Counted from the whole stretch's first letter, positions 6,665 through 63,581 are shown. The stretch is 63,581 nucleotides of DNA, filler included, from Stramenopiles sp. TOSAG23-3 (GCA_900128585.1; 25 parts of 25 records of this genome joined end to end with filler, not necessarily neighbours in it); one strand, 5' to 3'. The notes: generated from the letters alone by a model not told the origin. A program made the numbers and translations.

Positions 6665-6710
6665 AAAAACAAAAAATGGCGGCTGTTATTTAAGTAATTT
6701 TAGAATTAAA
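6665..6710 (+). promoter_or_regulatory. 3'-end motif A copy
   Basis: AAAAACAAAAAATGGCGGCTGTTATTTAAGTAATT about 105 nt after the BAG stop. Confidence 0.6.
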
Positions 6711-6939
6711 TAATTGTAGGTACGACAGACGCGGTTTGTAAATATTGCCAAACCACCTCTATCGGAACAATAGTCGGTGTATAAATACGAAGTCTAAGGC
6801 ATCCATTTCAATATATCATTAGTTTTTTATAATTTGTTTTTTGATTAGTTTTTTTTTTCAATTTCATAAAAAATCATTTCAATTTCGTAAAAAATCAATT
6901 CTCTTCTAAAAGCTTACGCACATCAACAGTTGAATTTAT

Positions 6940-7596
6940 TCAAGGTGGCGTGAAAGAGGTCGACCCGGCCCTTTCCTCTGATACCCCGCTTAATGGGACC
7001 GCGTACGCGACCAAACGCTCCGGGTTCTGGCCTGAAGTCATCGGCGCACCGTGGGTTATTGGGCCAGCGCTATATTGGGGCATGTAAGCCCGCCGGTGCG
7101 CGCTTGAAAAATTTGGACTGCTGCAGTGCCACACATCGTGTGACATTACCACCATGTCTCCAACGGCCATTTTCAAAAACGTCTTTCTTGTATCTTCACG
7201 AAATGCACTAAATTGTTGCCCCGAATGGCCCGATACAACAGCATCCTGAAACGAAATAATAGACAAGCCGCCGTTCGTCTCAGTAATGGCATCGAGGGGG
7301 CACCATACAGAAACATACGGAAAGAATTGCTGTATCCCTTTCTCTCGCATACTATCGGCATCGCGGTGCCACGCAAAAGAAGTCGCTTCCCCTAAATTCG
7401 GTGGTTTGACAATGTACTGCTCGTTCAGTAGACACAGATCTGAACCTAGAATCACCGTCAGCAAATCTTGAAGTTTGCTACAAAAAGATGCGTGCCGACC
7501 GGGCGCATTGCCAATCCTACCGTTGTTAAACACCGCGCTGCGCTCGCGACAGTAAGACTCCCTATCGTACCGACAGACGTGAGTGCTGTTGTTAAA
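6940..7596 (-). CDS. Phytanoyl-CoA dioxygenase (PhyH) family 2OG-Fe(II) oxygenase, 5'-truncated
   Basis: EQYIVKPP, WHRD (HxD), VSVWCPLD, NGGL, WHCSSPN...RRA motifs; frame open to the contig end. Confidence 0.9.
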   Translation of the reverse strand, partial: FNNSTHVCRYDRESYCRERSAVFNNGRIGNAPGRHASFCSKLQDLLTVILGSDLCLLNEQYIVKPPNLGEATSFAWHRDADSMREKGIQQFFPYVSVWCPLDAITETNGGLSIISFQDAVVSGHSGQQFSAFREDTRKTFLKMAVGDMVVMSHDVWHCSSPNFSSAHRRAYMPQYSAGPITHGAPMTSGQNPERLVAYAVPLSGVSEERAGSTSFTPP

Positions 7597-8464
7597 NNNN
7601 NNNNNNNNNNNNNNNNNNNNNNNNNNNNNNNNNNNNNNNNTTAATTAATTAANNNNNNNNNNNNNNNNNNNNNNNNNNNNNNNNNNNNNNNNNNNNTGTG
7701 CTAAATTCTGTCGGAACGTCCTTTTAGCTTTTAAGAAACTTCAATGATTATCTGTATAAAAAATTTGTTTATATAATATATTATTTTAGAATCTATAATA
7801 ATAATAATATTATTTAATATAATAATATTATATATTAAACATAATATCATATAATTAATAAAAATATAAAAAATAAATAAATAATACAGTATTATTATTA
7901 AAAAATAATAAAATCACATCGCGGAATAATTAACCTTTACATATCAGGCAGGATGCTATTACATCTTATTTACGGTCCCCCACCGGTCAGATGGATGATG
8001 CACGAAAAAAGCCTCCTTTTTTGAACGTTGCCGTAGAAGAAGTACATATTTCGTACTCTTATTTATTCTAAGTGCTGATTTTACACCTGAAATGGACGAA
8101 TTCGTTGGTACTCCTATACTAAGAAAAAATGAAAAAATACTCTGAAATGGACAAATTTTATGAAATTTCATAGGCATAAAGTGCTATGGTGTGTCTTTTG
8201 AATAATATTTAACGAGGCATGTTGGATGTTAATACAGTGATTAGCCATGGCATGAAAAAATCGTTTCATCAATATAATTATTTATTTTGTATCACATTTT
8301 GAGCGATCATTTGTTCACAACCCAATTTTTGGCACATAAATACAGAAAAATTGATTTATTCCGCGGATTTTTCTGTTTCCTTTTTTAAACAATTCAATCT
8401 TGCCCAATATATAATCGTACCTAATTTTGAACAAAAGTCTCTTACAGTTTTGTATAAAAGTCAT

Positions 8465-9952
8465 ATGGAATACTCTCTCGAAGAACCCCTAAATTCTGGA
8501 AGTGGGCATGAGAGTGCCAGTATGGATACGATCCCTGAGCGGAAGCGAGGGAAAATAGCTGCATATACTCCTTACACAAATGCTGGTATGAAGGAGTATG
8601 AGTGGAGGGTGTCGGGGCATAACTACGAATTCAGAAAGCGTGGAACTGATGAAAAAGCTCCTGGAAAATCATTTTTGGTGTCCACTCTCCCGTCTTTAAA
8701 TCAAGTCATGCGCTATGAAGCAGGAGACGTAGCAGCGTTCGATTCAATACTTGTGAATGTAGAGAAGAGGAAACCGAAAACAAAATGCATTGGCTGCAAG
8801 ATAAAGTATATTACCGGGAGCCATAGCCTGTATTGCACTGAATGCAAAGTAGAGGAAAGAAATCGACAACGGGAAGAAATTCGTAAAGCGAAGGTGGCTG
8901 AACGAAAACGACTGCAAGCGATTGAGAGTGCAAAAGCAGAAGCTATCAAAAATGCCCTATCCGAACAGGATGTTGAATTTAAGCGAGAGATACATCAAAT
9001 GGAAGTAAAGATGAAAAATCTCATGAACACTCTGGCATCTACCACCAAGCAATTGGCAAAGCAACAAGAAGAATCGGGGCAAATCTTGAATGGTAAAGTA
9101 GTGGCAGAAGATCAGTTGCAGAAAATGAAAGAAAAGCTAGAAAAAGAGCGAATTTCAATAAAAAATGTGCAAGCTAATGCAAATGCTGAATTGGTGGGTA
9201 TAATTTCAAAAAGTGTTGCCTATGGAATTAAAAATTTGCAGCTAAAGAAAACAATTATGGTCTCAAGTGTTGATATTAAGAGTGCCCTTCGACAAGATGT
9301 GCTACATGCTATCAATGCATCAGCATGCAAGTGGAAGGTAGGTGAAGGGCTGGCGCATGAGAGAACTAACATGGTTCGATCGTGGCCGGCATCCTTTTTC
9401 AATGCGATAACGGAAATTTTGCCAGGAGGTAATTATAGCACAATGCGGTTATCAAAAATGCTGGACTTGCCAGAAGCCACGATTGATTTATTTAAAACTG
9501 CCCTAATAACAAGTGATGTTAGTCAAGGACGATTATTGGAACTTTCAGAGTGTTCACGTACAACGTTTAACAAAATTTATGACCTCTCACAATATGAAGG
9601 GGCGCCAAAGCAAGCCTATCCTCACAAGTGGACAGAGATGGATTTACTACAATTTTACAAACATGTCCACGCAACTGCTCAAGTGGTTGGAAACCCTTTG
9701 ATTGATTCTAATCTTGGCACAGCATTTATCCAAAGAAGCATCAAGGTCCTTGGGATAGGGATTCGCTACTCAGCATCTTCAAAAGTAAAAAATTGTATAT
9801 ACACGAACGAGAAGACAAAACGGGCATTTTATAAACGGTCATTCCGTAGTGAATCCTTTCAGATGTCCATGTATACGCATGTGGAAGTAATGGTATGGAA
9901 TCCGTTAGGTATGTTGACATTGAAAGACACCGGAGGTTATGATCAATCATGA
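8465..9952 (+). CDS. Hypothetical protein with CxxC-x12-CxxC motif and long coiled coil
   Basis: ATG at 8465; CIGC...CTEC followed by an E/K/Q-rich helix; no family recognised. Confidence 0.6.
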   Translation: MEYSLEEPLNSGSGHESASMDTIPERKRGKIAAYTPYTNAGMKEYEWRVSGHNYEFRKRGTDEKAPGKSFLVSTLPSLNQVMRYEAGDVAAFDSILVNVEKRKPKTKCIGCKIKYITGSHSLYCTECKVEERNRQREEIRKAKVAERKRLQAIESAKAEAIKNALSEQDVEFKREIHQMEVKMKNLMNTLASTTKQLAKQQEESGQILNGKVVAEDQLQKMKEKLEKERISIKNVQANANAELVGIISKSVAYGIKNLQLKKTIMVSSVDIKSALRQDVLHAINASACKWKVGEGLAHERTNMVRSWPASFFNAITEILPGGNYSTMRLSKMLDLPEATIDLFKTALITSDVSQGRLLELSECSRTTFNKIYDLSQYEGAPKQAYPHKWTEMDLLQFYKHVHATAQVVGNPLIDSNLGTAFIQRSIKVLGIGIRYSASSKVKNCIYTNEKTKRAFYKRSFRSESFQMSMYTHVEVMVWNPLGMLTLKDTGGYDQS

Positions 9953-10469
9953 GTTATAGAAGTATATGTACGATATGGGATAATCTTGAGAGTCTTAAAA
10001 CATACTCTATATAATTTATCGCACCCAAACCGCTTCCCATGTCCCAAAGGCGCTCCACTTGGCCCGTAATAATATTGGACGTAGCTGGACGTAGATACGC
10101 GGCGCGTACGAGACAAGGGCCGAGATGAAGCACCGGACGTCCATGCGCCGCGTGGANNNNNNNNNNNNNNNNNNNNNNNNNNNNNNNNNNNNNNNNNNNN
10201 TTAATTAATTAANNNNNNNNNNNNNNNNNNNNNNNNNNNNNNNNNNNNNNNNNNNNGCAGTAAACAGCATAGACTATTTGCAAGCTTAGTCTAAAATAAA
10301 AAAATAGGATAACTCTATTCTAAAAAAATAACTAATATTTACGGCAAGTCCGGTTGTTAAAAAGGAGACCTACCAAACAACACTAGCGCTACCGTTCCCA
10401 CACACAGAACCATTTAAAGTTAAATTCAAACTCAAAAATAAAAGGTTCAAATCGAAAAAACAAGCAAAC

Positions 10470-11576
10470 ATGGCAACGAATACAAGCAACGAAAACACAA
10501 ATGGAACCACCAACGGAACCAACAAAAAGAATGGCAACAAAGGAAACAACTCATGGAAAGGAAACAACTCATGGCGACAAGGAAACAACCACAACAACTT
10601 CCAGCGATACCCGAAAGAAGTCAGAACGATCAAGGACATGATAGCATACAAAGCAATCGAATCCATGACAAAGACACAATGCATCGGGAAAATCCTAGCA
10701 ATGACAAAAGCACTGAAAAAAGCAAGGAAAAAGACAAAAGAAATGAAGAAAAAACTGAAAAAATACCAACCAGTAGTACTTCACGACGACAGCTCATCCT
10801 CTGACTCTGATAGCGACTCCTCGTCATCAGACGACGACGAATCCTTCTTTAACTTTGGACAGGAAAAGACAAAGAAAACCAGCAAAAAAGACAGAAGGAA
10901 AGACCGACAACGACGACAAGAAGAAAGGAAACGGCAAAAAGTTCAGGAACACAACATGAACAAAATGCTACTAGCTGTCACGTCACTAGCAGAAACGACA
11001 CGACAAAGCCGGATCAGGGAACAGTACAGGCACGATGCAACGCCCGCACAACCAGTATCCCCACCACCGATCAGAGCACAACAACGACCGCCACAGACAC
11101 CGCTACAAACAACAATGCGCACTTCCCACCTGTCAGAAGACACACCAGGAACTCATCTGTCACCATCACCAACGTCGCCAACACAGGCGGCACCGGGTAC
11201 CACGGAGCACACAGTAACTTTTGCACCACCAACAGAAGGAACAAACCTGCTCGCAAATGCGCCAGCAGCAACCCCGGATCCAACGATAACAATCGAGGAA
11301 ATCAAGAACCTATGTACAAGCAATCAATTACGAGGGCTAACACAGACGGACCTCAGAAACTTCCAAACAACGATTATGGAACACAAATGGGACTACCGAG
11401 GAAACGACCAAAATCGAATCACTCAAGATGGCACTGCGTTGTATAACCTAGCAAGACAATATGGCCTAAGACCGTCGCTAATACACCTAACCACCGACAC
11501 AACCAAGTGGAAAGGAGTAGCCACAAAGCTATGCATACGATTAAAAAGGGCGCAAGCGTCAACAACAACCAACTGA
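10470..11576 (+). CDS. ORF1, gag-like low-complexity basic/coiled-coil protein
   Basis: 368 aa with N/G-rich start, K-rich helix, S/D tract and P/T-rich linker; ends at TGA 11574-11576. Confidence 0.7.
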   Translation: MATNTSNENTNGTTNGTNKKNGNKGNNSWKGNNSWRQGNNHNNFQRYPKEVRTIKDMIAYKAIESMTKTQCIGKILAMTKALKKARKKTKEMKKKLKKYQPVVLHDDSSSSDSDSDSSSSDDDESFFNFGQEKTKKTSKKDRRKDRQRRQEERKRQKVQEHNMNKMLLAVTSLAETTRQSRIREQYRHDATPAQPVSPPPIRAQQRPPQTPLQTTMRTSHLSEDTPGTHLSPSPTSPTQAAPGTTEHTVTFAPPTEGTNLLANAPAATPDPTITIEEIKNLCTSNQLRGLTQTDLRNFQTTIMEHKWDYRGNDQNRITQDGTALYNLARQYGLRPSLIHLTTDTTKWKGVATKLCIRLKRAQASTTTN

Positions 11577-11579
11577 AAA

Positions 11580-12716
11580 TTGGACGCGTGGACCCTCCTT
11601 ACAATAATCGGAACACTAAAAAAACAACACTTAAAGAGGACCACCACGCAATACAAAAAAGAGGTCGACGACCTCGACGACTTGCTCATTGCGACATACA
11701 TTATGGCATTCGAAGGCACTACAAAAAGAGCACAAGAAAACATAGCATTAATAAAAAACGCAACCAAGGAAAAAACAACCGGAGGCATATATATGCTCAT
11801 ACACCCAAAAACCCGTCACAGATATATCGGACAGACAGAGAACCTGAACCGAAGGAAAAGAGAACACTGGACAGGACTAAAAAATGCGATACACAACAAA
11901 CCAAACGAGATGAAAAAATTATATACGACGATGAACAAACAACCAGAATCAGGAATGTGGATATTCATAGTATTACGATACGAAGAACGAAACCATGTAC
12001 ATCAAGAAAGGTATAAAAATAAAGTAGAAAGACTTAAGCAAGAAAGACACTATATCTCAAAACACCGACCAACCCTAAACTACCTAGAACGATACACAAA
12101 TAACGACAGGTCAAGGGACATCGGAAAGAAACAAAAACGATTTCATAGGAGAACAGGAACACCAAAGACACAACCGCGAACAACGAGAACACAGAGAAAC
12201 CGGGAAAACGTTAGCAAAAACCAGTTCACAACCTTTGAAGTAAAAAAGACGAAACGACGATACACCATGCTCAACAGCACAACGAGCTTATACCCAAAAC
12301 ACGAAAAATATAAGATCACAATCAGAAAAGGAACAAGGGATCTAACAAATTATCGTAGCGACCATACCAAATGTATCAGAAAAATTAAAAAAATCGTCAG
12401 AAACATGAAAATAGGGGAAAAGAAAACCATAAAAATGTCACCACGACAAGACATGGAAGAATACCCAGAAAAAATAAAAAAACTGTTAAGAATAGAACAC
12501 ACCGAACTCTGGCAACAAACGACAAAAACACTGGAACAAATCTGGCGACATCGAAAACAAAGATGGCAACAAGATAAAGAAAACACAGAAGTTAGAGAAA
12601 AAGAGACGAAGAAAGAACTCAAAAAAATACTAAGAACACGATATGGAGTCAGCCCAGGAGACACACAATATATTGGCATACCGTATAACCCATCTGAGCG
12701 ACAACAACGAACGATG
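11580..12716 (+). CDS. ORF2, GIY-YIG endonuclease-containing protein, 3'-truncated
   Basis: GGIYMLIHPKTRHRYIGQTENLNRRKREH...RLKQERHYISKHRPTLN contains the GIY, YIG, R, E and N catalytic pattern; first in-frame ATG is at 11703. Confidence 0.88.
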
Positions 12717-12816: not shown

Positions 12817-13075
12817 AGAAGAAGAAGACGAAGAAGGAAGAAGAAGAAGAAGAAGAAGAAGAAGAAGAAGAAGGAAGAAGAAGAAGTAGAAGAAGAAAGA
12901 AGAAGAAGAAGAAGAAGAATGAAGAAAGAAGGAAGAAGAAAGAAGAAAGAAGAAAGAAGAAAGAAGAAGAAGAAAGAAGAAGAAAGAAGAAGAAAGAAGA
13001 AGAAAGAAGAAGAAAGAAGAAAGAAAAAGAAGAAAGAAGAAGAAAGAAGAAGAAAGAAGAAAGAACAAGAAGAAA
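12817..13075 (+). repeat. (GAA)n / (AAGAAGAAAG)n microsatellite
   Basis: Visible tandem purine repeats at the contig start. Confidence 0.95.
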
Positions 13076-13685
13076 GACAAACTAAAAATATAATTTAAAA
13101 AATGATATAAAATATATACCTCTTTTACATACACATAGCATAGCATATGTTTCCTTATTTTGGCATAATTATTATTTATTTCGTATCAATCCAACCATCA
13201 AATCAAATATCGCCAAACAACCACAAAAAGAAAATTCAATGCTGTGTATATCTATAAGCGAAAACATCATCGTATTCTTTGAAACTTTTGTTTTTGTTGT
13301 TTTGTAGTAAATGATTAGTCTAGTTATTTTAATTTTTCCCTTTTTCATTGGTAGACTAAGTGTTATAATGTACTACAAATTATGTACTATTATAACCCTA
13401 ATCATAACATCAATATTTCGTTAAATATAAAGTGCTTTTATTTTATCACAAATTTATTAGAAAGCCAAGATATTCAAACAAATGCAAGGAAGTGAGAAAT
13501 GCACATTTTCATCTAAATTCCTTTGTGTGTGAAAGACCAAGATGAGACTTCATCACGATTAGAGAAAGGTTGAACGCGGGCAAGACAGAGGGTGGCCAAT
13601 ACGAAGCTGGATGAAAGACCGAGCACAAACAACACTCTGGACGCTGAGCAGATAAGGCTGGTGAGTCAGATTAAGTAAAAACAAC

Positions 13686-15375: not shown

Positions 15376-17286
15376 GGCGTAGGAAGAGAAACGGGACGCT
15401 TCGCATGGGCTGCAGGTTTTATCGCTGATGCTCGTCCCGTTGCTCGTGATGTATGTGCCCGTGGCACACTTCGTCCAGCCCGCGCAGAAGTTGGCGTTGG
15501 TGCGCGAGGAGAATTTTCCCGCTTCGCAGGGCATGCAAGTCCGGTCGCTCGTTGCAGTTCCGTTCGCTGAGATAACGCTTCCCGCCACACAATCTACCAT
15601 ACGTGTGCAGGCGTGCGAGTTGGCGTAGGAAGAGAAATGGGACGCTTCGCATGGGCTGCAGGTTTTATCGCTGATGCTCGTCGCATTGCTCGCTATGTGT
15701 GTGCCTGCAGTACAGTTAGGGCTCGTCCAGCCCGCGCAGAAGTTGGCGTTGGTGCGCGAGGAGAATTTTCCCGCTTCGCAGGGCGTGCAAGTCCGGTCGC
15801 TCGTCGCAGTTCCGTTCGCTGAGACAAAGCTTCCTGCGCTGCAGTTGCGCCACTTCGAGCAGGCAGCGGCGTTTTCGAGCGAAGTGAAAGTCCCGGCCCC
15901 GCATGCCGAGCACGACCTGTCGTTCGATGAAGTCTCACTAACCGCGACGAAGGTTCCGGCCGTGCAGTTGCGCCACTGTGAGCAGGCTCCTTCGTTGGGC
16001 CCCATCGAAAAGGTATGCGGCCCACACGAAGAACACGTGCGGTCGGAAGTAGAGGACCCTGCTGCGCTCACAAAGGTCCCGCCGCCGCAGACCGCCCAAG
16101 GGATGCATTTGGCATTGGGGGGTAGAATGGATTCCGATACGCTACTACTTCTCATATAGTTTTCACTCGGGCACGAAGTGGTGGTATCCTGGCAAAGCGT
16201 CCCGTGCAACGTGTTGGTTCTCGCGGAGCACGATCCCGTAAAGGGTGCTACTGTGCATGGGTTGGAAGCGCAGCTCGTTGGACTTACGAATTTGTCTGTG
16301 CCCCCACTGGGATACTCGTATCCATAGAAGGGGTGCGATCCTCTAACATCCGTAAAATTGGTGTTGACAATTGCGATGGATGGAGTACCCCAACTATGTA
16401 TGTGTGTAAAGATGTTATGCCCTTGTTTCGCAGTTGATCCTGTCGTTGCTTCGTTTCGTATAAACGTACATTCTCTAATATTTGCAGTTACTTGCCCATT
16501 GAAATAAAGTCCACCCCCCCCATCGCCACCATATGTCCCTCCACCTGTTTGTGTATTGGATTGTAGGATGACAGATTGAAGGTGAAGTTGAGCAGAACCA
16601 GAAGAGGAATCACCAATGACATAAATACCACCTCCTCTATCCTTTGCAGTGTTATTTCGCAACGAACTATCAAATGAAGAATAATGTGAACCAGACGACA
16701 GGAAGAGAGCACCACCGTCATCCCCTGCCGTATTCATGGCATAAATTGAAGAATGATCGACTAGCTTTGCATTCTTTAAATATACGGCCCCACCGTATTC
16801 ATCTCCATTATTCTCATTGAAAACAACAAAAGAAAAGAACAGATTAGGTTGTCCCTGAGTAGCAGAAATAGCACCACCCCATCCAGCACGATTATTAAAA
16901 ATGGCACAATGGGATATGTTCAAATGGGCAGCTACGCTTTGAACACGAATGGAACCACCATAGTTGCCGGGCCAATTATTACCACTGACGTCCCCACCGG
17001 TCAGCCGTAACCACTTCATCGACACCCTGTGCGCGCCACTCCCGATATAAAAATGCCTCTTTCCGCTCGCTGCCATCAGCGTAGAGTACGCCGTCTCTTT
17101 CCCCGTCACCGACAAGTCTCCGGAAACGGCAACTTCGTCTGACATCGTACAGTCCGTGCTTCGTTCAAACGTCCCACTCGTAGACGCACAATCCCATTCA
17201 CTTGCATCCGAAGGAAGGGCGCTGTGAAAGACAACAAAGATTACAAAAACAAATGAATGTATTTCATGCATATTCATTGAATTCAA
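15376..17286 (-). CDS. Secreted/surface protein with POMP-like beta-helix (GGAI/FxxN) and TNFR-like Cys-rich tandem repeats, 3'-truncated
   Basis: Hydrophobic signal peptide; GGSI, GGAI, GGAV, GGAL, GGGI, GGGL motifs with FxxN/NxA; repeated C..G.F....G...SDRTC..C..G.FS units. Confidence 0.85.
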
Positions 17287-17932
17287 TCTTGTCTTTCCTT
17301 CCTTCTTTTGTTTGTTTGTTTGTTTGTTTCTTAAATATAAAATACAATTTTATAAATTAGTTGTATATAATTATTTGTGAAGAAAGAAAAGAAGAAGAAA
17401 GAAAAAGAAACGAATACTTCAAATAATTAATAATAATTCATATAGTGGTGTCTAATAAAATAATAATATTATTATTAATTTAATAATAAATAATATAATA
17501 GTCTATTAAACCATGGTACGGTAATAAAAAAATTTAATAAATTCAAGCAGCAACAACAAAGCAAAGCAAATAAGAAAAAAAAAGGGCTGGGCTTGGGCGG
17601 GGAGGGGGGGTATATCCTCTTCCTTCTGGATAGGTTTTTCTTTAATTAGACTACATAATTTCTACTGTATTATTGGAATTATTCCTTTTTCCTTTTGTAC
17701 TTGGATATGTATTTAAAATTTATACTCCTCGTATTGGTTCTATTTCTTTTTTTCTTTGTGCTCCGCTCCTTTGGGTGGCTAAGCACCACCCAATAGATTC
17801 TCCTGACTATTGTTTTAATAATGTTTAATATANNNNNNNNNNNNNNNNNNNNNNNNNNNNNNNNNNNNNNNNNNNNTTAATTAATTAANNNNNNNNNNNN
17901 NNNNNNNNNNNNNNNNNNNNNNNNNNNNNNNN

Positions 17933-22939: not shown

Positions 22940-23044
22940 NNNNNNNNNNNNNNNNNNNNNNNNNNNNNNNNNNNNNNNNNNNNTTAATTAATTAANNNNN
23001 NNNNNNNNNNNNNNNNNNNNNNNNNNNNNNNNNNNNNNNAAAGT

Positions 23045-25306: not shown

Positions 25307-25359
25307 GAGGAAAGACTCCCCCTCACCCTTCCACACAGTGTATACAGTTCTATAGTTGC

Positions 25360-25491
25360 TTTTTTGTATTATTTCTGTACTTGAAACTTTTTTGTATTAT
25401 TTCTGTACTTGAAACTTTTTTGTATTATTTCTGTACTTGTAACTTTTTTGTATTATTTCTGTACTTGTAACTTTTTTGTATTATTTCTGTA
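25360..25491 (+). repeat. 28-bp minisatellite, ~4.7 copies
   Basis: TTTTTTGTATTATTTCTGTACTTGWAAC units start at 25360, 25388, 25416, 25444, 25472. Confidence 0.95.
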
Positions 25492-28308: not shown

Positions 28309-28448
28309 GAAAATTTTAAATTTGTTTTGAACTTGAAATCCACAGAACTAATGAGAAAAACACCAGACAGTGATGTTAAAATTTCAAAAATAAAACCTCA
28401 TCCGTAAATACCTCGTAATTAAGATATCATATTTCATATGATACTATG

Positions 28449-28581
28449 AAAAAACCAAAATATATAGTATGTTTTAAGACTCTCATTTAAATATGATACT
28501 ATGATATGCAAATCAAGAAAATTGGCTGTTATTTAAGTAACTATAAAAATAAAAAAAACAAGAAAATTGGCTGTTATTTAA
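28449..28581 (+). promoter_or_regulatory. Tandem 3'-end motifs B-A-A
   Basis: AAAAAACCAAAATATATAGTATGTTTTAAGACTCTCA, then motif A at 28511 and 28554. Confidence 0.65.
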
Positions 28582-28668
28582 CTATATCATTAGTTTTTTT
28601 CTTAAGTTAAGTGATTAATCACATCTTCAACATTGTTTTACCTCCCTGCCCTTTCATGAACGTCGCAT

Positions 28669-30369: not shown

Positions 30370-30956
30370 GCGCGGTCTGCCAAGAAGAAAGGAACAAGTC
30401 TCCCACCCAACTGGAGCTTAAATTCCCCGCATGTATTGTTTATATATATATATACAGTTAAAAAATGTACGATAATGAACGGGTAAATAAATCGCACACT
30501 TCTTTAATTCAACTCACTGATTACAAAATTGGAGAAAAATTATTATTATTAACACCCCCACACCTCCTCTTCTTTTCTTCTGACAGAGNNNNNNNNNNNN
30601 NNNNNNNNNNNNNNNNNNNNNNNNNNNNNNNNTTAATTAATTAANNNNNNNNNNNNNNNNNNNNNNNNNNNNNNNNNNNNNNNNNNNNAGTAGTTGTTGG
30701 TGAATGAAGAAGAAGATAGAAGAGGTCTTTACTACTGCTGTACTTATGAACTTCAACGCAACACAATCATCACCATCAAAGGGTGATAGGATTGATGAGA
30801 AATCAAGAGGTTGCGGTGATTTGCTTACATACGCTTGTCATTTGATACGGTAAGAAAGAGGAAAAGAAAAACACTCAATTCATCACCAACAGCACACATT
30901 TTCACTTCAAGTTTTCAACCACATACAACCCAATACAATACAACACAACCAACAAA

Positions 30957-32599: not shown

Positions 32600-32895
32600 T
32601 GCTTGGAAAATCACACAAGGAATGAGTCATCTATGAGTGAGATATCGGATATGGAAGTTGCTAATCCACATACCGATTCGGATCATGCATGGAGTACATG
32701 TGAAAATGATAGTCAACATTAAGTGACAAGGGCATATTGATTAGTAAAACCACAAGACCAGAGATAAGTTTGCAGTACATGAAGGAACGTAAACCTCTTA
32801 ATGGAAAAAAGGAGCAGTTTCATTTTCGCGGTACATGAGAAAGCTAAATTTTAATAACTTAAGAAATATAACATACTATATATTTTGTTTTTTTA
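32600..32895 (+). repeat. Dispersed repeat family copy 1 (body followed by reverse motif B)
   Basis: Shares CCGATTCGGATCATGCATGGAGTACA...GTGACAAGGG...CGCGGTACATGAGAAAGCTAAATT with the copies at 33343, 39941 and 42935. Confidence 0.9.
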
Positions 32896-33013
32896 ATATA
32901 TATTAAATAGCCAAATTGTTTGTTTAGTTAAAGATAACATATGTATTTTCACAATTTCTGTGTTTTGTTTTAATGTTAAGAAATAACGTACAAGGTTTTT
33001 GTTTTCATTTTTT

Positions 33014-33342: not shown

Positions 33343-33554
33343 TACCGATTCGGATCATGCATGGAGTACATGTGAGAATGATAGTCAACACTAAGTGACA
33401 AGGGTGTATTGATTAGTAAAACCACAAGAGCAGAGATAAGTTCGCAGTATACATGAAGGAACGTAAACCTCTAATGGACAAAAGGAGCAGATTCATTTTC
33501 GCGGTACATGAGAAAGCTAAATTACTTAAATAACAGCCAGTTTTTTGTTTTTAA
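33343..33554 (+). repeat. Dispersed repeat family copy 2 (body followed by reverse motif A)
   Basis: Highly similar to 32671-32850, on a different contig. Confidence 0.9.
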
Positions 33555-36153: not shown

Positions 36154-36310
36154 AGACATATTTCCCTCGAAGTACTAGTACTAAGTACTTTTGGACCAAC
36201 AAAGCTTTCGAAAGGCAATTAAAACGACGTAATCTAAATAGTCAGAGCATAAATTTCAGTTTAATTGAAAACAAAATTACAGAACCAAGTTAGGATTAGG
36301 GTATGAAGCT

Positions 36311-36410
36311 AAATTTAATTACTTACTACGAGGAAATAACAGCCAATTTTCTTGTTTTTTTTAATTGAAAAAACCAAATTATATAGTATGATTCTTCAGA
36401 ATTAAAATTT
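36311..36410. terminator. Imperfect palindrome of reverse motif A plus motif B between convergent genes
   Basis: AAATTTAATTACTTA...AAATAACAGCCAATTTTCTTGTTTTTTTT-AATTG-AAAAAACCAAATTATATAGTATGATTCTTCAGAATTAAAATTT; terminator function is inferred only. Confidence 0.4.
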
Positions 36411-39619: not shown

Positions 39620-39940
39620 TTTTGTACACAACTCGGCGGCGAACGACACGTTGCATCGTGTGTGCGTGTTTTTGAGGTTGAGGGATTTGTGATCGTGGGA
39701 CGGCAGACAGACACAGAGACCATCGTTTGTGCTTAGGAAGGGGATGAAGGACGCCCATGGGAGGGTGTGGTGAGCAAAACCGATGATGGACCGAACGGTT
39801 TTCTTGAATTCTGTTCGTTCTACCCGTGCGTGTTAAGCTTTAAAAAAAAATCCAGTGTTATCCTAAGAAAATTATATAATAAAACAAATTTAATATTACA
39901 CACGTTCAACAAGAAAATTGACTGTTATTATATAAACGTT

Positions 39941-40245
39941 TAAAAGCAAAAAATTGGCTGTTATTTAAGTAGTTAAAATTTATCTTCTTCGTGTACCGCG
40001 AATGTGAATCTGCTCCTCTGTCCATTAAAAGGTTTGTTTCCTTCAAATGTACTGCGAAACCTTTATCTCTGTTCCTGTGATTTTCTTTAATCAATTTACT
40101 CTTGTCACGTAGTCTTGACTGATTTATCATTCTCTGGTGTACTCCATGCATAATCCGAATTGGTATTTTGAACCTCCGGCGATGTCAAATGAATCGTGAT
40201 CAACTTCCTCATCCGATATCTCACTCAGTGTGATTTTTCAAGCAT
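39941..40245 (-). repeat. Dispersed repeat family copy 3 (motif A followed by reversed body), more diverged
   Basis: Its reverse complement aligns to 32600-32850, including TGAGTGAGATATCGGAT and TATGCATGGAGTACA. Confidence 0.85.
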
Positions 40246-41093
40246 TAAAAAAACCTAATTACAAAGTTTAATCTTAACCTGGGTCAAATGACTCAATATA
40301 GGTCACCGCTGTTTGGAAGAGAAAATAGATTGAAAAAGGAGAACAGCATTATAGAAAAAGAACTTGGTGATATTTTTTTTCTGTTTGAGAAAATAGAGGG
40401 AAAAATAGGGGAACAACACACTATCAAAAACGAATTTAGACTAAGGTAAAATCATAGTTATAGTATTTAAAAAAGAACTTGGTGAGATTTGTTTTGAATA
40501 GACGACATCAGGTTGGTTATAGGGTTATTGAAGACACAGAAAACAGACACCGTCTGATGAATGAGGTTATAATTAGGGTTATCAAACAGGCACAGTAAAA
40601 AAAATAACCAACAGGAGTGAAAACTCCTGGTAATATATATATATTAACTATAGCAAGTTCTCTTCCTGTTCTACTACCTTCCATCAATCGTGTTCCAATT
40701 AGGGTTTTCAAACAGACACAGTTAAAATATATAACCAACAAGGAGTTAAACCTTGTCCGATTGNNNNNNNNNNNNNNNNNNNNNNNNNNNNNNNNNNNNN
40801 NNNNNNNTTAATTAATTAANNNNNNNNNNNNNNNNNNNNNNNNNNNNNNNNNNNNNNNNNNNNAGAAGAAGAAGTCCATTTGCAGATTTAGTACATTAGC
40901 TTGCTAATAAGCGAAAACACCAAAAACATACACAACAAGAAAGAAACGAATAGATTTGATGAATTTTAGACCAGAACATACATTGTTTTGTAAATTTAAT
41001 TTTATCTAGTTTTATAGAATTTTACGGTGCGTTTAAGAAGACAATTTCTTTTCCGCTCGTTCCTTTCCTCCGTGTATATATATAACAATCTCA

Positions 41094-42934: not shown

Positions 42935-43278
42935 TAAAAACAAGAAAATTGGCTGTTATTTAAGAGTGTGTAATTAAAATTAATGTACTGCACTGACTGC
43001 GAACTGAACTCTAGATTTAGACATTCAAGGTTTACATTCCTTCGTGTACTGCGAAGTTATCTTTTCTCTTTTGGTTTTACAAAAAAAACAAATTATATTG
43101 GTTATTATTTGGTTTTACTAATCGATATACCCTTGTCACTTACTGTTGACTATTATTGTCAGGTGTACTCCATGCATAATCTGGAATGTTTAGTAGATTT
43201 CAGTTCGCAGTACAGCCAATTTTCTTGTTTTCAATTTTAAAAAACAAATTATATAGTAACTTCTAAAGATTAAATTTT
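42935..43278 (-). repeat. Dispersed repeat family copy 4 (motif A, reversed body, then reverse-A/B palindrome)
   Basis: Motif A at 42935; TACCCTTGTCACTTA...GTGTACTCCATGCATAATC; reverse A at 43212-43231; B at 43237-43278. Confidence 0.85.
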
Positions 43279-45947: not shown

Positions 45948-45982
<35 letters not shown>

Positions 45983-46262
45983 AATGGTATATACTTATTA
46001 ATATGAATATTAGGACACTATACTACTGTGTATCGAGTGGAAGAAGAAGGATTTTTGTTTCTGGATTTGAATTAAATGTGGAATTACATGTGGAATTGTT
46101 AAAAACGGAATCCGTGCAATAAGTTCAGGCATTCCATTGAGTTGGGGGCGGAACAAACGAAAGATAACCGTTTCGTTTCGAGACCGATGTTCCATTTGAA
46201 ACCCCAAAGGTTCAATTCAATCCGACCAGGCCACGTGTGAACAAGGGAAGAATGGGAAAAGC

Positions 46263-50851: not shown

Positions 50852-50922
<71 letters not shown>

Positions 50923-51026: not shown

Positions 51027-51105
51027 AAACAACAACCTCTTCTTTATTTCATTTCCTATACTATTACCATATATAAATATCTAAACTTTAATTTTTACTA
51101 CTCCT
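51027..51105. repeat. 79-bp exact inverted copy of the contig end (53383-53461), probable chimera/assembly artefact
   Basis: Exact reverse complement for 79 nt; same length as the case at 20487. Confidence 0.9.
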
Positions 51106-52795
51106 CTTCGTCGTCTACCTCCCTCTCGTCTTCGGCTGAGGAAGCCTTGCTGTCCCCAGCCCCCCCCTTTGGCTCGTCGAGCTCGACAAAGCTCTCCTCG
51201 GCGTAGTCGTCCTCTTCTTCGTCGTCTTCCTCTCCCTCGTCTTCGGCTGGGAAAACCTTGTGGTCCCCAAACTCGCCTTTGGAATCTTCGAGGTCCGCAA
51301 AGCTCTCCTCAGCGTAGTCGTCGTCCTCCCCATCTGCTTCGGCCAGGGGGGCGACATCGTTCCCCTCCTCAAACCCAGGGCCCGCCGCGGCGCCGTGGAT
51401 GGTCTCCGCCTCGGTCGCCGCCGGAGATTTCTTCGGAGACGTTTTTCTATTCAGCCCTGAGTAGAAGTTCGCCCGGGCCAAGTGCTCAACGCCCATCCCC
51501 TCCTCCTCGTCCGAAGACTCGTCCGAGCTGCTGGTGCCCTCGTCCAGGCTTGCGGACAATGGCTTGCAGGACGCCTGGTAACGTCGGTGGGCCAACAGCT
51601 CCGGGTCTACGTCGTCGTCGCCGCCGTCGGACTCGTTCGGTTCACCACCCAGGTGCAGGTCGCCCTCCTCCTGCATCATCGGGATCGACGCGGAGTGCTT
51701 CATGCTCTCCGTGGTCCGGGGGGGCGAGACGGCGTTGTAGATCCCAGAGATACGGATCTGGTCAGACTCTTCGTCATTTTCGTCCTCGGACCCTTGGTCG
51801 TCACTGTAAATCCCGTGCTCGTGCTCTTCCCGCCGGACTTCCTCCGATATGGTGTGGACCGTCCGCAGCGGGGTCTTCCTGCGGGCCGAGTGAAGGATCT
51901 GGTTCGCCTCGGCCTGGTTGAAGGACTGGCTGCCTTCTTCGTACGCCTCTGGGAGGGGGCTGAGGATGTTTCCAAACGTAGGGTTCCACCCGTTTGCCTT
52001 GTCTAGTTCCTGCGCGGACATTGACCCGATGCCCTCGCCGTCGTCGTCGCACTCGTCCTGGTCGTCCGACGAACGATGGTAGTGGGGGCGGGGGTTCTCC
52101 TGGTCGTCGTCGTACTGGGGGGCGGGTGCCGAGTGCTCGGGGTGAAGGCGGGCGCCGTCTTCCAAAATGTTCGTGCGCGTGCCAAGGACGGGGCGGATGG
52201 TAGTGTCTAATTTCTTTATCCTGCGAACGTGCTGTATCTGCTGCTCCATTTGCCTCGCCTTCAGCGCGGCGCTCTTTGCCTTTCGCATCCGCACCTGTGC
52301 AAGCTCGGCCTGTCGGTCCGCCGCGAGCTTGTTGCCCTTGGCCCGGCGCCGGTCCGCCGACGTTTGGCGCTTGGGCTTCCCCCTGGCCTTCCTTGCCCGC
52401 CTCACGATACCGGTGCCGCCGCCCCTCAACCCTTGTGCAAAGTTTGAGCTGGCATTCTTGGCCCCCACCGTGCGAAGCTTGTTGACGGAATCGTTCTTTC
52501 GGTTCTGCGCCACTCTCTCCACGGGGGTCGTGTCGCGGTTGTTCCACGCCTTGAAGTGCCGGGCGGGCTTCGCCTGCTTCATTCGGTTCTTATTGCGCTT
52601 CAGCATTCGCTCCACGTTAGGGTTCAGCGCCCGCTGTGCGCCGACGGCGGACTTGACACGCCGAAGCCTGTTGTTTCGGTAAGACTCCTGCCTGCTTTCG
52701 ACTACTTTCTGGGACGACGCCGGCCGCTTTTCGTTCCACACGAAGGAGGCGTTCTGGGTGTTCCACGAATTCAAACGGGACTGCGCTGTTTTCAT
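51106..52795 (-). CDS. Hypothetical protein with basic N-half and acidic C-half carrying DDYAEESF repeats; true 3' end lost
   Basis: 565-aa ORF whose apparent stop (51098-51100) lies inside the 79-bp inverted segment. Confidence 0.7.
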
Positions 52796-53955
52796 TTTGA
52801 AAGGAGGTGGATTGTGGCGCTGTATTCAAGGGGGGGGGGGGAGAAAAAGGGATGATCAAACGAACGAACACAATTTGTCTTGTATCTCTTTTTATATATA
52901 TTACTTGTGTGTGTGTGTTTGTTTGTTTTCGTTGGTTAAATTTGTGTTTTGTAATGTATATATATATAGTCTATTGTTTTTGAAGTTTACCTGTTGCTAT
53001 TTCTTCTTTCCATGATAATTAATCTTCTTTTACCGTCAAAAAAAAGGTATTTTTTCATGTTGTACTGTAGTAGTTTAAAATAAATATAATAATATTATAA
53101 TAATTAAAAAAAAAGAAGAAGAAGAGAAATGATGTTTTACGTGTGTTCTACTAGGTAACCAGGAGGAGGAAGAGAAGGAAGTATAATATTATTTTCCCTA
53201 CCCGCCGTACGGTACGGTACGGTACTGGTAATAGTAGGTATTAAAACCGGTACCTCCTGTGAAGAATAAGAATTAAAAATAAGAAATTAACCGCCGCCGG
53301 ATGGTGGAGGAGAGTAAGGAAGGAAGGAAGGAAGGAAGGTAGGAGAAGGAAGGAAGGAAGGAAGGATGTGATGGAATAGAAAAGGAGTAGTAAAAATTAA
53401 AGTTTAGATATTTATATATGGTAATAGTATAGGAAATGAAATAAAGAAGAGGTTGTTGTTTNNNNNNNNNNNNNNNNNNNNNNNNNNNNNNNNNNNNNNN
53501 NNNNNTTAATTAATTAANNNNNNNNNNNNNNNNNNNNNNNNNNNNNNNNNNNNNNNNNNNNTACCTGCTAATTTGAACTAACTAAACAGTAGTAGGGCGT
53601 TAGTATAGGGATATTGGCTATTAAGTATAAACTATCAAACGGTGTGCTTAAGGTATTATTTAAGGACAAATACCGGATTTAAGGATTTGGATAAATGGAT
53701 GGATATGAGCAGGGTTCCACTTTTATTGACGCAATTTTTTTGTTTCTTACTGGTTATGCTCTCAGAAAATCTCATTACCAATCAAACCTTGATAGGCGCC
53801 TGTGACGCCTTAGACATCCGGGAATAACCAGTATAACAAACAGGTCTTACCATACGCAGTAACATAAATTGTAAATTATTTTATTAGAAATTATACTGTT
53901 GTTATTAGACACTATTATTTATTTTATTTTATATATATAAAATAAAATAATAATA

Positions 53956-56800: not shown

Positions 56801-56954
56801 TTAAAACAAGAAAATTGGCTGTTATAATATTTATTATTGAAGTAGCAAGTCAGTCAAATTAAAATTTAAAAAAAAAACAATTATTATAGTACAAATTAAA
56901 ATTATATCGTATAATTTTAATTACTTAAATAAAAGCCAATTTTCTTGTTTTTAA
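56801..56954. promoter_or_regulatory. Cluster of motif A, motif B and reverse motif A
   Basis: A at 56801-56825; B-like at 56866-56903; reverse A at 56913-56954, 24 nt after the minus-strand stop at 56978. Confidence 0.6.
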
Positions 56955-56977: not shown

Positions 56978-57979
56978 TCAGTAATCGTCGCCGTCACCAG
57001 AGCTGTCATCGCTGCCACTGCCGTCTGAGGAGCTGCTACTGCTGCCACTGGATATGCCAGCGTACCTTTTCTTCTTGGCACGTTTCGGGGCCGCCGCCAC
57101 CGTCCCCTTCTCGTTTCCAGCCCCGGCGTCTTTTTTCTTGCCGTCCTCGTCAAACTTTGAGTACTTTTCGTCGAGCCTTGCTCGTTCTTGGGCTTGAACG
57201 ATCAGTGCGCGCACTTCGTCCGGCTCGTCCGATAAATCGTCCCCGTCCCCATACATATCTTCATAGGCATCGCTGGCCTCACTATGCCCCGTTGTCCCCG
57301 TCCCACCGACCGAGCCCTCCCCCATCGCGTTCAGCAAATTCTGGTTTTTGATGGAGTAAATGAGCTCCTCTGCTTCGTCCAGGGCCTTCGAGCCGTGCAA
57401 GCCCCCGGGGCGTTTCAGAGAGGCACCATTCATGGCATTCTCAGGAAGTCCTTCGGTCACACCTGGTTCTCCCACCCCCCCCGTCTCGCCGTCGAGGCCC
57501 GCCGCCTCCGCGAGCAGCATTTCTATTTCGTCCTCCACGTCCAAGTCGTCGACGGCAGCGTCGTGGGCGATTCCTATCTCGTAAGAACTTTCCTTCAAGA
57601 ACCCCATAATGTCACCACCATGCATGGGTGCCACAGGTCCTTCGCTGGACCTCAAGAACTCGTTTGTAGCGCGTTCCACCGCAGCCTCGTCCGTTGCTTT
57701 GGGTGCACTCGGTTTGCTGCCACCGGACGCGACCGCCTTGTTCCCCGTTAGTTTCTCAAAGCGCTGGAAGAGTTCGTCCGCGGTCGACCCCGCCACTTGG
57801 TTTCCGTCCTTGTCTATGTCTCCCTTGAGGACTTTCAGTCTATTCTCCAGCTCGCCTATAGTCGCAGGCGGAGTCCCCGTGGACTTTAGCTCATCGAAGC
57901 GGGACTGGAGCAGTTTCAACCTTTTGTTGTTCGCGTCCTCGTCGTCACTGCCACTCCCGTTGCCAGGGAAGGACGCCAT
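56978..57979 (-). CDS. Hypothetical acidic protein with repeated short amphipathic helices
   Basis: 333-aa ATG ORF; LQSRFDELK, LENRLKVLK, LFQRFEKLT. Confidence 0.7.
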   Translation of the reverse strand: MASFPGNGSGSDDEDANNKRLKLLQSRFDELKSTGTPPATIGELENRLKVLKGDIDKDGNQVAGSTADELFQRFEKLTGNKAVASGGSKPSAPKATDEAAVERATNEFLRSSEGPVAPMHGGDIMGFLKESSYEIGIAHDAAVDDLDVEDEIEMLLAEAAGLDGETGGVGEPGVTEGLPENAMNGASLKRPGGLHGSKALDEAEELIYSIKNQNLLNAMGEGSVGGTGTTGHSEASDAYEDMYGDGDDLSDEPDEVRALIVQAQERARLDEKYSKFDEDGKKKDAGAGNEKGTVAAAPKRAKKKRYAGISSGSSSSSSDGSGSDDSSGDGDDY

Positions 57980-58415
57980 TCCTACCTTTTACTGACACTC
58001 GTTCCGGTTCGACCACTATACCATGCTTTTAACTCTTCATACAGATACAACAATTTAAACAGAAAAGATAAGGACGAACACAGTGCTTCTGTAAACGTTT
58101 CTTTCTATCAATTAAGTAATTCAAATGTATACTATATATAAGAATACAATTGCTTTTGAATATAATAATAATAAAATCTAAAATCTAAATTGGAATTATT
58201 ATTATTATTATATTTTTTTTTTTACATAATAAGAATGAAGACCATTATATATATCATCTATTTTTTTTAATAATAAAATATAAAAATATTCCATTGTTGT
58301 GTTGTTGATACAGTACGAGGTAGTTGTTGTTTTTTTTATTCTTTCTTCTTCTATCTATCTACTCGTATTATTATTATCTCTACTATTAAATATTATTAGA
58401 CACTGGTATTTTAAA

Positions 58416-61005: not shown

Positions 61006-61213
61006 AAAGTGACACACGCAAAATTAAATACAGCCATATAAAAAAACAAAATATANNNNNNNNNNNNNNNNNNNNNNNNNNNNNNNNNNNNNNNNNNNNT
61101 TAATTAATTAANNNNNNNNNNNNNNNNNNNNNNNNNNNNNNNNNNNNNNNNNNNNACGACAGTCGTTATTTTTTTTTTCAAAAAAAGATGAAGAAGGATT
61201 TATTGCTTTTATT

Positions 61214-61522
61214 TTGATAACCATTTCCATTTTGATAACCCAAAAAAATGGCCAATCCCTTTTGCATAATTTGAAACATTTTGAACAGGCCGCAAACTCG
61301 CATATTGTTCTGGACTTGTGGAACAGTGATTATGAAACGGCTGACGACGAAGCAATGCACGAGAAGCTTTACATAGACAAGCATTCCCCCTTTCCACTAA
61401 AATCCTTTGCGCTTTTGGGCATTTTGCCAAAAGATTTGATCAACACCGTGAAACAAGCATTTTCCCCTAGTGCAGGAATCGGACTTTCCGAAACGGGAGG
61501 GAAAGTTGCCGAAAAGCCGTAG
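61214..61522 (+). CDS. C-terminal fragment of a hypothetical protein
   Basis: Coding-like frame ending at TAG 61522, followed by motif A. Confidence 0.45.
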   Translation: MITISILITQKNGQSLLHNLKHFEQAANSHIVLDLWNSDYETADDEAMHEKLYIDKHSPFPLKSFALLGILPKDLINTVKQAFSPSAGIGLSETGGKVAEKP

Positions 61523-61570: not shown

Positions 61571-61611
61571 TAAAAACAAAAAATTGGCTGTTATTTAAGT
61601 AATTAAAATTT
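61571..61611 (+). promoter_or_regulatory. 3'-end motif A, near-consensus copy
   Basis: TAAAAACAAAAAATTGGCTGTTATTTAAGTAATTAAAATTT, 49 nt after the stop. Confidence 0.65.
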
Positions 61612-62342
61612 ATGTTCCTCAGAGATTATAATATAGTACTTATTTATTTATTAATTATTTTTAAGTTTTCATTGTTGTACAATCCAATTACTCCATGCTG
61701 TATTAACGTTATAAATTAGGGTTCATTTTGGTCCCCTTGATCCTTCCTTGATCTTCCTGTCTCTCTCGCTCTCTCGTTACCCTTCCCTCATTCACAAAAT
61801 GTGTGAAACGAATATCTAATTTAAAATAAGAAAAGTGGTCTTTTTGTTCGTTACTTTTTTTTGTTGATGCTATTCTTATACGTAATCTAGTGTAAGTGAA
61901 TAACATACGGTACGTAGTCTACGAAAATAGTATGACATATTTATATTCCTCGAACTTTTATCGGTTTCACGACGATAGTTAAATAGAATTGAGATATTCG
62001 TTGTATGATTATTGTTAACTCTCTCTCTCCCTATGATTATGTATATTTATAGGAAAAGTTAAAGTTGGAAAAATTTAGTGCGGTAGTATGAACGGTGCGA
62101 CTACGGTACAGGAACTAACATCAAACAAACAACAACGAACGAACGAAGCAAACAGGCGGGATAACAAAAAGCATGCATGAAGACTCAACATTTTGACTGT
62201 TTCCTCACACAATTGATCGTTCATTGGAAAAACTACTTTAGCACCAATAAAGTTATCCTTGCCATTTTGAAATAAGTAAAACACCACCACAAAATATACT
62301 ACCGTTAATTTATAATCGCCGTAAAATTTAACAAATTGCAAC

Positions 62343-63392
62343 ATGGGAAATAACATAAACTTGCAAATATCATCTGAGGAGAAGCATGCAGATGCTCTCG
62401 TGGCGTTTAGGGGTTATACACAAGCGCAAGCGGACGAAGTAACCCAGGCTTACAAGCAAGCTGATATGGAATTTGGTCTGACTGTAGATGCGTTGACTAC
62501 ATTACTCAAGGACGAGGGTTTGGCCAAGAAGGTCAAAGATGCGTACGCTCGAGGGGCCAATGGGACCACTATTAATGCCCTGGAGTTTCTATCAACATTA
62601 GCATTGATTGCAAATGGTAACACCACTGAGACTGCGGACTCGTTGTTCACTACTTTTGATTTCAACGACAAAAACTCTATCTCTTTCGATGAACTTACAA
62701 TATTGGTAATTTCTGTTTGTCGTGGTTTGAAAGTTGCAACAGGATTAGGCCAAGAACCCGCCGATGAAAAAATCGAGGAAGTCACAAAGACAAAGTTTGA
62801 CCCAGATGGTGAAGTTAGCCGTGAAGACTTCAAGCAATTTGTTATCGATCTTCTTAACGTTAAAAGCGGCGATTTGCCCTACACGGGGACTATCTTTCGA
62901 GCGTTCGGGATCGATGTTCCAGATCCAACACCAGATGTCCCTGCAGAAGACGCCGCCCCAGCTGCGGAGGAAAAGCCAGCCGAAGAAGCTGCCCCAGTCG
63001 CCGAGGAAAAGCCCACCGAGGAAGCTGCTCCAGCCGCTGCAGAGGAAAAGCCAGCCGAGGAAGCTGCCCCTGCCGCTGAGGAAAAGCCCGCCGAGGAAGC
63101 TGCCCCAGCCGCCGAGGAAAAGCCAGCCGAGGAAGCTGCTCCAGGCGCTGCAGAGGAAAAGCCAGCCGAGGAAGCTGCCCCAGCCGCCGAGGAAAAGCCA
63201 GTCGAGGAAGCTGCCCCAGCTGCCGAGGAAGCTGCCCCAGCCGCTGAGGAAAAGCCAGCCGAGGAAGCTGCCCCAGCCGCCGAGGAAAAGCCAGCCGAGG
63301 AAGCTGCCCCAGCCGCTGAGGAAAAGCCAGCCGAAGATGCAGCCGCTAAGCCAGCCGAAGAAGTCAAGGAGGAAAGCAAACCGGCCGAGTAA
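62343..63392 (+). CDS. EF-hand Ca-binding protein, probably N-myristoylated, with [12 protein letters not shown] repeat tail
   Basis: MGNN start; [14 protein letters not shown] loop and a second degenerate DGEVSREDF; about 11 tandem ~12-aa repeats at 62939-63350. Confidence 0.85.
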
Positions 63393-63581
63393 TCGTAATG
63401 GTAAAAAGAGAGACCAACAGCCAACACATTTCAACAAAAATACAAACAAAGTACATAAAATTTTAAGAGTAAATATATTTAATCAAAAAATTGGCTGTTA
63501 TTTTACATCTGTATGTGTATACGAACCCGAAACGATCAAACTCAATACCGATCATTATTTCATTGAGCAGTACCACAGACA

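Follow-up and report, generated by a model that had tools for sequence, protein, structure and literature searches.

What do the words mean that recur near gene ends in the DNA assigned to Stramenopiles sp. TOSAG23-3? In the stretch analysed here (63,581 nucleotides, hereafter the window), two related sequence motifs, A and B, are found repeatedly at a short distance from stop codons, and a first-pass annotation had read them either as a lineage-specific signal for 3'-processing or termination, or as the end of a mobile element located at gene ends. We consider it very probable that the motifs are the tails of 5'-truncated copies of two related families of a retrotransposon lacking long terminal repeats (non-LTR) that has an R2-type endonuclease, and that these copies entered AT-rich sites by target-primed reverse transcription and accumulate between convergent genes. 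The second of the two earlier readings is borne out in substance, with two corrections that concern the class of the element and the strand on which the motif was written.

The window is made of 25 contigs of 2,426-2,469 nucleotides (nt) each, sorted by length and joined by spacers of the form N44+TTAATTAATTAA+N44, so that the sites do lie on unlinked contigs, as had been stated. Each reported site was aligned locally to the consensus of the first-pass annotation, taking AT-rich window DNA as the background (99th percentile, 15). All 15 sites of motif A scored between 19 and 38. For motif B, five of the seven sites (28449, 32850, 43237, 36368 and 9988) reached scores of 19-25 and stand, one (56866) is borderline at 15, and the site at 4202 is lost, as its score of 12 is at background level. 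The core GGCTGTTATTTAAG, with up to two mismatches, occurs 11 times in the window, where shuffled sequence gives 0.60 on average and never more than 3.

Copy anatomy and insertion footprints

When the copies in the window are aligned on the core, similarity sets in abruptly at (A)nCAAGAAAATTGG, the sequence upstream of this point is unrelated, and the far end differs from copy to copy. The sample was extended to metagenome contigs with an exact 21-nt pattern (CAARAAAAYTGGCTGTTATTT), which gave at least 133 loci, and the 143 distinct copies among the matches listed present the same sharp boundary at the AAAAACAAG end and the same variable far end. Motif B follows the same design: its AAAAAACAAATTATATAG end is fixed and its extent varies. 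Four window copies run 200-300 nt into a common body (for example, 32671-32850 and 33343-33523 are 94% identical), and in the metagenome loci one head stands ahead of several different bodies, many copies being just 20-45 nt long. The variable end lies from 17 nt to more than 1.4 kb from the fixed one. The copies therefore combine a common 3' end with variable 5' truncation, as is characteristic of non-LTR elements. At one metagenome locus, L103 (230-260), and at the same site in a second one, L130, the tail copy has just 16 nt, AAAACAAGAAAATTGG, and lies between ATAACTTTTT repeats, illustrating how extreme 5' truncation can be.

Copies are often nested, as in locus L029, where a 292-nt copy with a 15-nt duplication sits inside the tail of another copy. 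This nesting accounts for the impression that A and B are interchangeable, and contigs 14, 17 and 23 owe their apparent inverted-repeat pairs to it as well.

An exact direct repeat of at least 10 nt ending at the junction was found for 31 of 176 A and B copies, where 100 permutations averaged 3.07 and peaked at 7; the control flank of the same locus gave a single such repeat. The first version of this test had given 22/85, versus 2/85 in the control. A looser screen, which accepts repeats of at least 8 nt and for which about 14 of 176 are expected by chance, returned repeats of 8-20 nt (both 20-nt cases being one tandem duplication in locus L023) and element lengths of 17-1474 nt. Variable-length target-site duplications, as made by non-LTR elements, are thus present, and 29 of them, of 10-17 nt, could be rebuilt as empty sites. 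All that these 29 sites have in common is their AT-rich sequence and, at the nick, a weak preference for A^T, and they do not share the one specific repeated target that would be expected of an R2-like element. Mobility is also visible directly in a single pair of loci: L130 carries an extra 22-nt inverted A tail with a duplication of about 16 nt relative to the near-identical L103, and the two form a filled and an empty site, that is, a presence/absence polymorphism of one copy.

The motif could instead be the terminal inverted repeat of a miniature inverted-repeat transposable element (MITE), or of another cut-and-paste DNA transposon, and contigs 14, 17 and 23 indeed have two A motifs that face each other, 150-300 nt apart. 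We hold this to be highly improbable, since most copies bear the motif at one end only and lack a partner, duplications range from 8 to 17 nt with no constant length, and copy lengths form a continuous truncation series from one fixed end. The inverted pairs are explained by nested insertions with their own duplications (L029, L030 and L130), and the combination of two inverted ends with a fixed-length duplication, by which a MITE would be recognised, is not what the copies generally show. In addition, the open reading frame (ORF) associated with the copies has an R2-like endonuclease fold and not a transposase fold (see below). The mobile element is thus better described as a 5'-truncated non-LTR retroposon than as the MITE considered earlier.

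The element ORF and its predicted protein

The bodies of the copies converge on ...ATCCGAATCGGTA..., which in loci L029 and L055 runs on for over 1.4 kb. The opposite strand of the body is an ORF (e.g. L029:1588-2430) that ends about 130 nt ahead of the tail, which is the 3' end on the strand of the ORF. Remnants of the ORF C-terminus are cut at differing points, and 17 of 21 distinct ones, the one at 32600-32716 in the window included, have a co-oriented tail 78-212 nt downstream. Because the tail is co-oriented with the ORF and lies 3' of it, the motif as first written is the reverse complement of the element 3' end. On the element strand the tails end in ...TTAAATAACAGCCAATTTTCTTGTTTTT-3' (A) and ...TCTTAAAACATACTATATAATTTGTTTTTT-3' (B), with ...CTTGTTTTT-3' as their common ending.

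Protein searches yielded two versions of the ORF, P0002 and P0005, of 744-776 residues. The element protein has 265 cluster representatives, and the best 150 of the 265 are all fragments. A series of natural fragments that overlap one another (P0160 > P0159 > P0157/P0158/P0007 > P0005/P0002) joins the upstream part of the protein to the tail. The AlphaFold model of P0005, built with 80 homologues, has a predicted local distance difference test (pLDDT) score of 80-95 over residues 350-600. In VIA-align comparisons with this model the top seven rows are all R2 retrotransposon proteins (Z 9.7-10.9, root-mean-square deviation 3.6-4.0 Å, 189-199 aligned residues), followed by other PD-(D/E)XK nucleases with Z of at most 6.8. 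In five of the seven R2 entries, residues 290-607 of the model match the C-terminal region alone, and in 9nl2 and 8ibz the match extends upstream. R2 proteins also rank first in Foldseek. Both P0005 and P0002 present a Cys/His motif ahead of the endonuclease domain, and K-x-x-K-Y in the predicted second helix; the available part of one account of R2 describes this order, CCHC and then endonuclease, and a K..KY endonuclease motif (PMC4838377). The C-terminal domain of the element is accordingly modelled as an R2-type Cys/His knuckle with a restriction-like endonuclease fold, an assignment that concerns the fold and does not imply activity. At the level of fold, we regard the endonuclease expected in a non-LTR element as shown.

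For the upstream fragment P0160, 25 of the 30 nearest named Atlas clusters are RVT_1 (top score 0.95, 166 shared features), and the sequence contains QGDP and A/F-ADD, which we take to be reverse-transcriptase motifs. An Atlas search with P0005 gave unnamed clusters and a lead to zf-RVT (0.84). The upstream fragment is likely, though not demonstrated, to be a reverse transcriptase, as this language-model lead and these motifs suggest. The knuckle and the endonuclease occur in one protein, whereas the reverse-transcriptase-like part is joined to them via overlapping homologous fragments only. Along the chain from P0159 to P0005, the ADD motif and the C-terminus are some 1,100 residues apart, and the protein ends in a long acidic tail, Ser-rich and of low complexity. 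R2 proteins are much shorter between the ADD motif and the C-terminus than this chain.

Placement between genes and the proposed mechanism

The closeness of the motifs to stop codons was confirmed, as every site lies about 20-350 nt from the stop of a long ORF. Their sense orientation after stops, also claimed in the first-pass annotation, was not, since a same-strand upstream ORF of at least 90 amino acids exists for only 13 of 22 sites, and at the other nine the sole adjoining ORF end belongs to the opposite strand. The annotation had counted partial genes at contig edges, and open frames of 55 amino acids to ~28306 (+), 39 to ~33016 (-) and 46 to ~10018 (-) are indeed present, but the one supposed near 43294 has just 3 amino acids, at 43297. 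If these partial genes are real, the spacers concerned are convergent, and every motif is then necessarily sense to one of its neighbours.

Convergence is also what the metagenome loci show. To the left, the longest ORF shares the motif strand in 62/73 cases, at a median distance of 125 nt; to the right, it has the other strand in 66/75, so that both flanks end towards the motif; 44 of the 61 sites with both flanks lie between convergent ORFs. With a threshold of 150 amino acids, and each intergenic region counted once, convergent spacers make up 40 of 49 regions (p = 1.4e-16 against 25%), tandem ones 8 and divergent ones 1. In such convergent spacers a motif is automatically sense to one neighbour, and spacers between tandem genes are the more informative case: there, 4 copies are sense and 8 antisense by the longest ORFs, or 2 and 10 with the 150-residue threshold, and no sense preference exists. 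In the window, 11 of the 19 long-ORF 3' ends have a copy within 400 nt, in either orientation. The idea that a reverse transcriptase stands beside the motif was rejected, as all 54 Pfam-named opposite-strand ORFs close to it in the metagenome loci are host genes (MCM, Sec23/24, dynein heavy chain, calpain and others).

These data bear on the reading of the motif as a 3'-end processing or termination signal, carried in sense by each gene downstream of its stop. The distance of all sites to a stop codon and the same-strand upstream ORF in most metagenome cases speak for it, as does one contig from an RNA library, which runs without mismatch from coding sequence (42615) into the 25th base of the motif (42959) of the copy at 42936..43211. 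However, a poly(A)-type signal should be found at essentially all gene ends and in one orientation, and here no copy lies within 400 nt of 8 of the window's 19 long-ORF ends, the ORF beyond the motif ends antisense beside it just as often, and tandem genes give no preference for sense. Target-site duplications, one polymorphic copy, tandem and nested copies, and the continuity of the tails into a retrotransposon ORF all argue in the same direction, and the signal proposed in the first-pass annotation now seems barely credible.

The contig from coding sequence into the motif fits with tails lying in transcribed 3' regions. Seven RNA runs contain part of contig 17, and in the assembled contigs of four RNA libraries the depth is 89-1015 at the motif and about 0-15 (mostly below 9) over the neighbouring gene, values that are summed over all contigs, other loci and organisms included, from libraries that can contain DNA. 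No RNA contig spans the whole contig 17 stretch, and no poly(A)-type end is present among the loose ends listed; assembled RNA contigs cannot show transcript ends, and parts left uncovered are no evidence either way. It may be asked whether the retroposon tails have also been co-opted by convergent gene pairs, supplying them with poly(A) or termination signals or serving as their spacers. This would agree with the copies near 11 of 19 gene ends, with the large share of convergent spacers that they make up, with the RNA depth at the motif bin, and with ATTAAA-like words read in the A motif. We consider co-option unlikely: no evidence of function was obtained, the copies occur in both orientations, their number and position vary among spacers, and the RNA data are of the assembled kind just described.

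The mechanism that we propose for the retrotransposon would start from a long ORF encoding a reverse-transcriptase-like region and, far downstream, a Cys/His knuckle and an R2-type restriction-like endonuclease, and the element would copy itself by target-primed reverse transcription. The endonuclease would nick AT-rich DNA roughly at WWWA^T, and the A-ending DNA strand would pair with the U-rich RNA tail and prime cDNA (complementary DNA) synthesis, so that the tail would be kept in every copy. Reverse transcription would mostly abort early, leaving most copies just 17-500 nt long, and staggered second-strand cleavage would produce the duplications of 8-17 nt. The copies, often nested, would fill the short AT-rich spacers between convergent genes, which would explain why motifs turn up just past stop codons on many unlinked contigs. 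In this scheme the priming mechanism and the reverse-transcriptase activity are what we infer.

Several results weigh against this retrotransposon reading. No full-length element was recovered, and the ORF is a composite of homologous fragments, 45-70% identical, taken from different copies. Pfam gave no family for any ORF fragment, RVT_1 included, even at E-values up to 10, and neither single sequences nor profiles of the ORF fragments found a match in the Protein Data Bank; as the structure model of P0160 is also unusable (pLDDT 48), the reverse-transcriptase assignment relies on the language-model lead and the motifs named above. The Foldseek E-values to R2 are weak (0.02-0.1). At the level of the copies, 145 of 176 have no exact duplication of at least 10 nt, the T-rich 3' end is unusual for a retroposon, and the predicted RNA folds of four tails are no better than those of shuffled sequences (z from -0.13 to 0.98). 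Lastly, crude, stop-to-stop ORFs served as gene calls, and the loci come from the listed matches to the exact 21-nt pattern.

A bolder version of the same reading, which we put forward as a doubtful possibility, is that of an R2-related lineage that would have abandoned a single target of the ribosomal DNA type and would home actively to termination zones between convergent genes, for example via a chromatin or transcription-termination feature. Its U-rich tail would prime on A-ending nicks, and its tails would form a large part of 3' untranslated regions (UTRs) and spacers, some possibly acting as terminators. Among the copies with a duplication and long flanks, which are presumably young, 7 of 12 lie between convergent ORFs, and in two of them one flank is the ORF of the element itself; this sample is too small and crude to tell targeting from survival. 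We found no account of retroposon tails between convergent genes in the literature searched, which is no proof that none has been published. A candidate on 'convergent genes' (PMC12633428) was irrelevant in the part available.

The copies in their genomic setting, and related elements

The copies along the window are collected in Table 1.

Table 1. Tail copies of the proposed retrotransposon in the window and their position relative to neighbouring ORFs
Feature	Coordinates	Strand	Details
A-type tail, extra-GGC variant	6665..6701	+	score 27; 107 nt past ORF 6198-6557(+), 237 nt from end of ORF 6943-7596(-)
B-type copy without A-rich head	9983..10017	-	score 19; in ~65-nt spacer between stop of ORF 8303-9952(+) and contig-end open frame (stop ~10018, -)
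A-type tail cut by contig end	17933..17963	-	~160 nt past stop of ORF 18123-20384(-)
B-type tail, 43 nt	28449..28491	+	12-nt target-site duplication TATGATACTATG at 28437-28448 and 28492-28503
Two short tandem A-type copies (28514-28541, 28551-28582)	28514..28582	+	antisense to ORF 28669-30417(-), stop 87-130 nt off
Long 5'-truncated copy, element sense strand +	32600..32925	-	starts ~45 nt past where host ORF 30846-32555(+) stops; includes the final ~47 element-ORF codons (32600-32716), 3' UTR, and a 25-nt B-type copy (32870-32894) nested within an A head that is degenerate (32895-32925)
Degenerate short A-type copy at contig start	33265..33300	+	score 20
A-type copy, ~210 nt	33343..33552	-	94% over 182 nt to the contig 13 copy; ~95 nt past stop of ORF 33645-35675(-)
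A-type copy, 88 nt	36272..36359	-	12-nt duplication TTTTCAATTAAA at 36260-36271 and 36360-36371; between convergent ORFs 35778-36290(+) and 36462-38219(-)
Short B-type copy	36368..36390	+	back to back with A copy 36272..36359
Short A copy (39908-39937), then long A-type copy (39942 to ~40265, end approximate)	39908..40265	+	long copy extends to where the element ORF encodes its acidic C-terminus
Long A-type copy, right end approximate	42936..43211	+	begins 22 nt past stop of ORF 41037-42914(+)
A-type copy, 20 nt, inverted	43212..43231	-	mimics inverted terminal repeats together with copy 42936..43211
Short B-type copy	43239..43260	+	
Cluster: short A (56803-56825, +), borderline B-like (56868-56892, +), A (56913-56952, -)	56803..56952	.	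A copy 56913-56952 lies 27 nt past stop of ORF 56978-57988(-)
A-type tail	61572..61611	+	score 38; 51 nt past end of ORF 61157-61519(+)
Short A-type copy	63484..63506	+	91 nt past end of ORF 62325-63389(+)

The source of this DNA is an intron-poor marine protist. Long unbroken ORFs in the window carry eukaryotic domains (WW/ankyrin, PH, mitochondrial carrier, MFS and WD40/CAP-Gly, among others), and a 1.4-kb stretch of it recurs in marine metagenome and metatranscriptome runs of 14 studies. A search of the whole window against Rfam gave no family at the gathering threshold, and ARAGORN found no tRNA gene in it. A small-RNA gene with the motif as its promoter was rejected on these two results, and because the presumed gene body is the reverse complement of the transposon 3' UTR and ORF.

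Other features of the window can be listed briefly. Contig 5 (10332-12716) presents two long ORFs in the same frame split by one stop, the first of 414 residues without a family and the second of 380 residues with a GIY-YIG nuclease domain (E 9e-6), and the same stretch has a very strong A-over-T skew (0.36-0.48); the pair could be another mobile element (e.g. Penelope-like) or virus-derived DNA. The ends of contig 9 (20487-20573 and 22853-22939, 87 nt, 98.9%) and of contig 21 (51027-51105 and 53383-53461, 79 nt, 100%) are inverted copies of each other, which suggests a chimera of assembly or amplification and not a biological feature. Contigs 10, 19 and 21 (23040-25491, 45948-48387 and 51027-53461) have a G+C content of 53-62%, compared with 33-47% elsewhere, and no tail copy, and may represent another genome compartment or another organism within the assembly. 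Cross-matches of contigs 3 and 6 are explained by (GAA)n microsatellite arrays at 5368-5538 and 12817-13077. On the minus strand, 15376-17349 holds a 658-residue ORF in which cysteine-rich repeats of the TNFR/NGFR kind (E 5.5e-22) occur alongside a weak Chlamydia PMP repeat match, and this region includes an internal direct repeat of 207 nt (15376-15582 and 15622-15834, 90%).

Among known elements, the closest likeness is to R2 and other elements with a restriction-like endonuclease (R4/Dong, NeSL, CRE/SLACS and Utopia). As in these, the 300 C-terminal residues model as an R2 knuckle and PD-(D/E)XK endonuclease, a reverse-transcriptase-like region probably lies upstream and the K..KY motif is present, and all copies have a specific 3' terminal sequence, with no poly(A) tail and with frequent 5' truncation. 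The stretch between the reverse-transcriptase motifs and the knuckle is several hundred residues longer than in R2. The targets also differ, being many different AT-rich sites here, whereas most elements with this endonuclease use a single specific repeated sequence for insertion (rRNA genes or microsatellites, for example), according to the available part of PMC4640811.

The fixed 3' end, variable 5' truncation, variable duplications, AT-rich nick and proposed microhomology between primer and RNA tail are shared with L1-type long interspersed elements and their dead-on-arrival, 5'-truncated copies. L1 has a poly(A) tail and a T-ending primer, in contrast to the U-rich tail and A-ending primer strand proposed here. 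Moreover, the endonuclease of the present element is predicted to be restriction-like and not of the APE type, and copies of 17-30 nt are common. A third comparison is with 'safe-haven' retrotransposons of gene-dense genomes, which concentrate their insertions in one class of harmless intergenic sites, as in our case. In the available parts of the sources this is described for Dictyostelium TRE5/TRE3 and for yeast Ty1/Ty3 near RNA polymerase III genes (PMC5006619, PMC5911963). The possible haven here differs in consisting of convergent protein-coding spacers and not of a tRNA neighbourhood, in line with the tRNA-free window.

For the genomes concerned, these findings remove a false lead, in that a conserved 30-40-nt word after stop codons, seemingly an exotic poly(A) or terminator signal, is transposon debris. 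The tails should be masked in the annotation of related uncultured marine protists, and they explain contig breaks at gene ends. They also point to a divergent retrotransposon with a predicted R2-type endonuclease and no single target site, whose copies, often of 17-50 nt, lie within 400 nt of about half of the sampled gene ends, mostly between convergent genes. If it is true that this placement reflects active targeting, it would represent a new safe-haven strategy for a compact genome.

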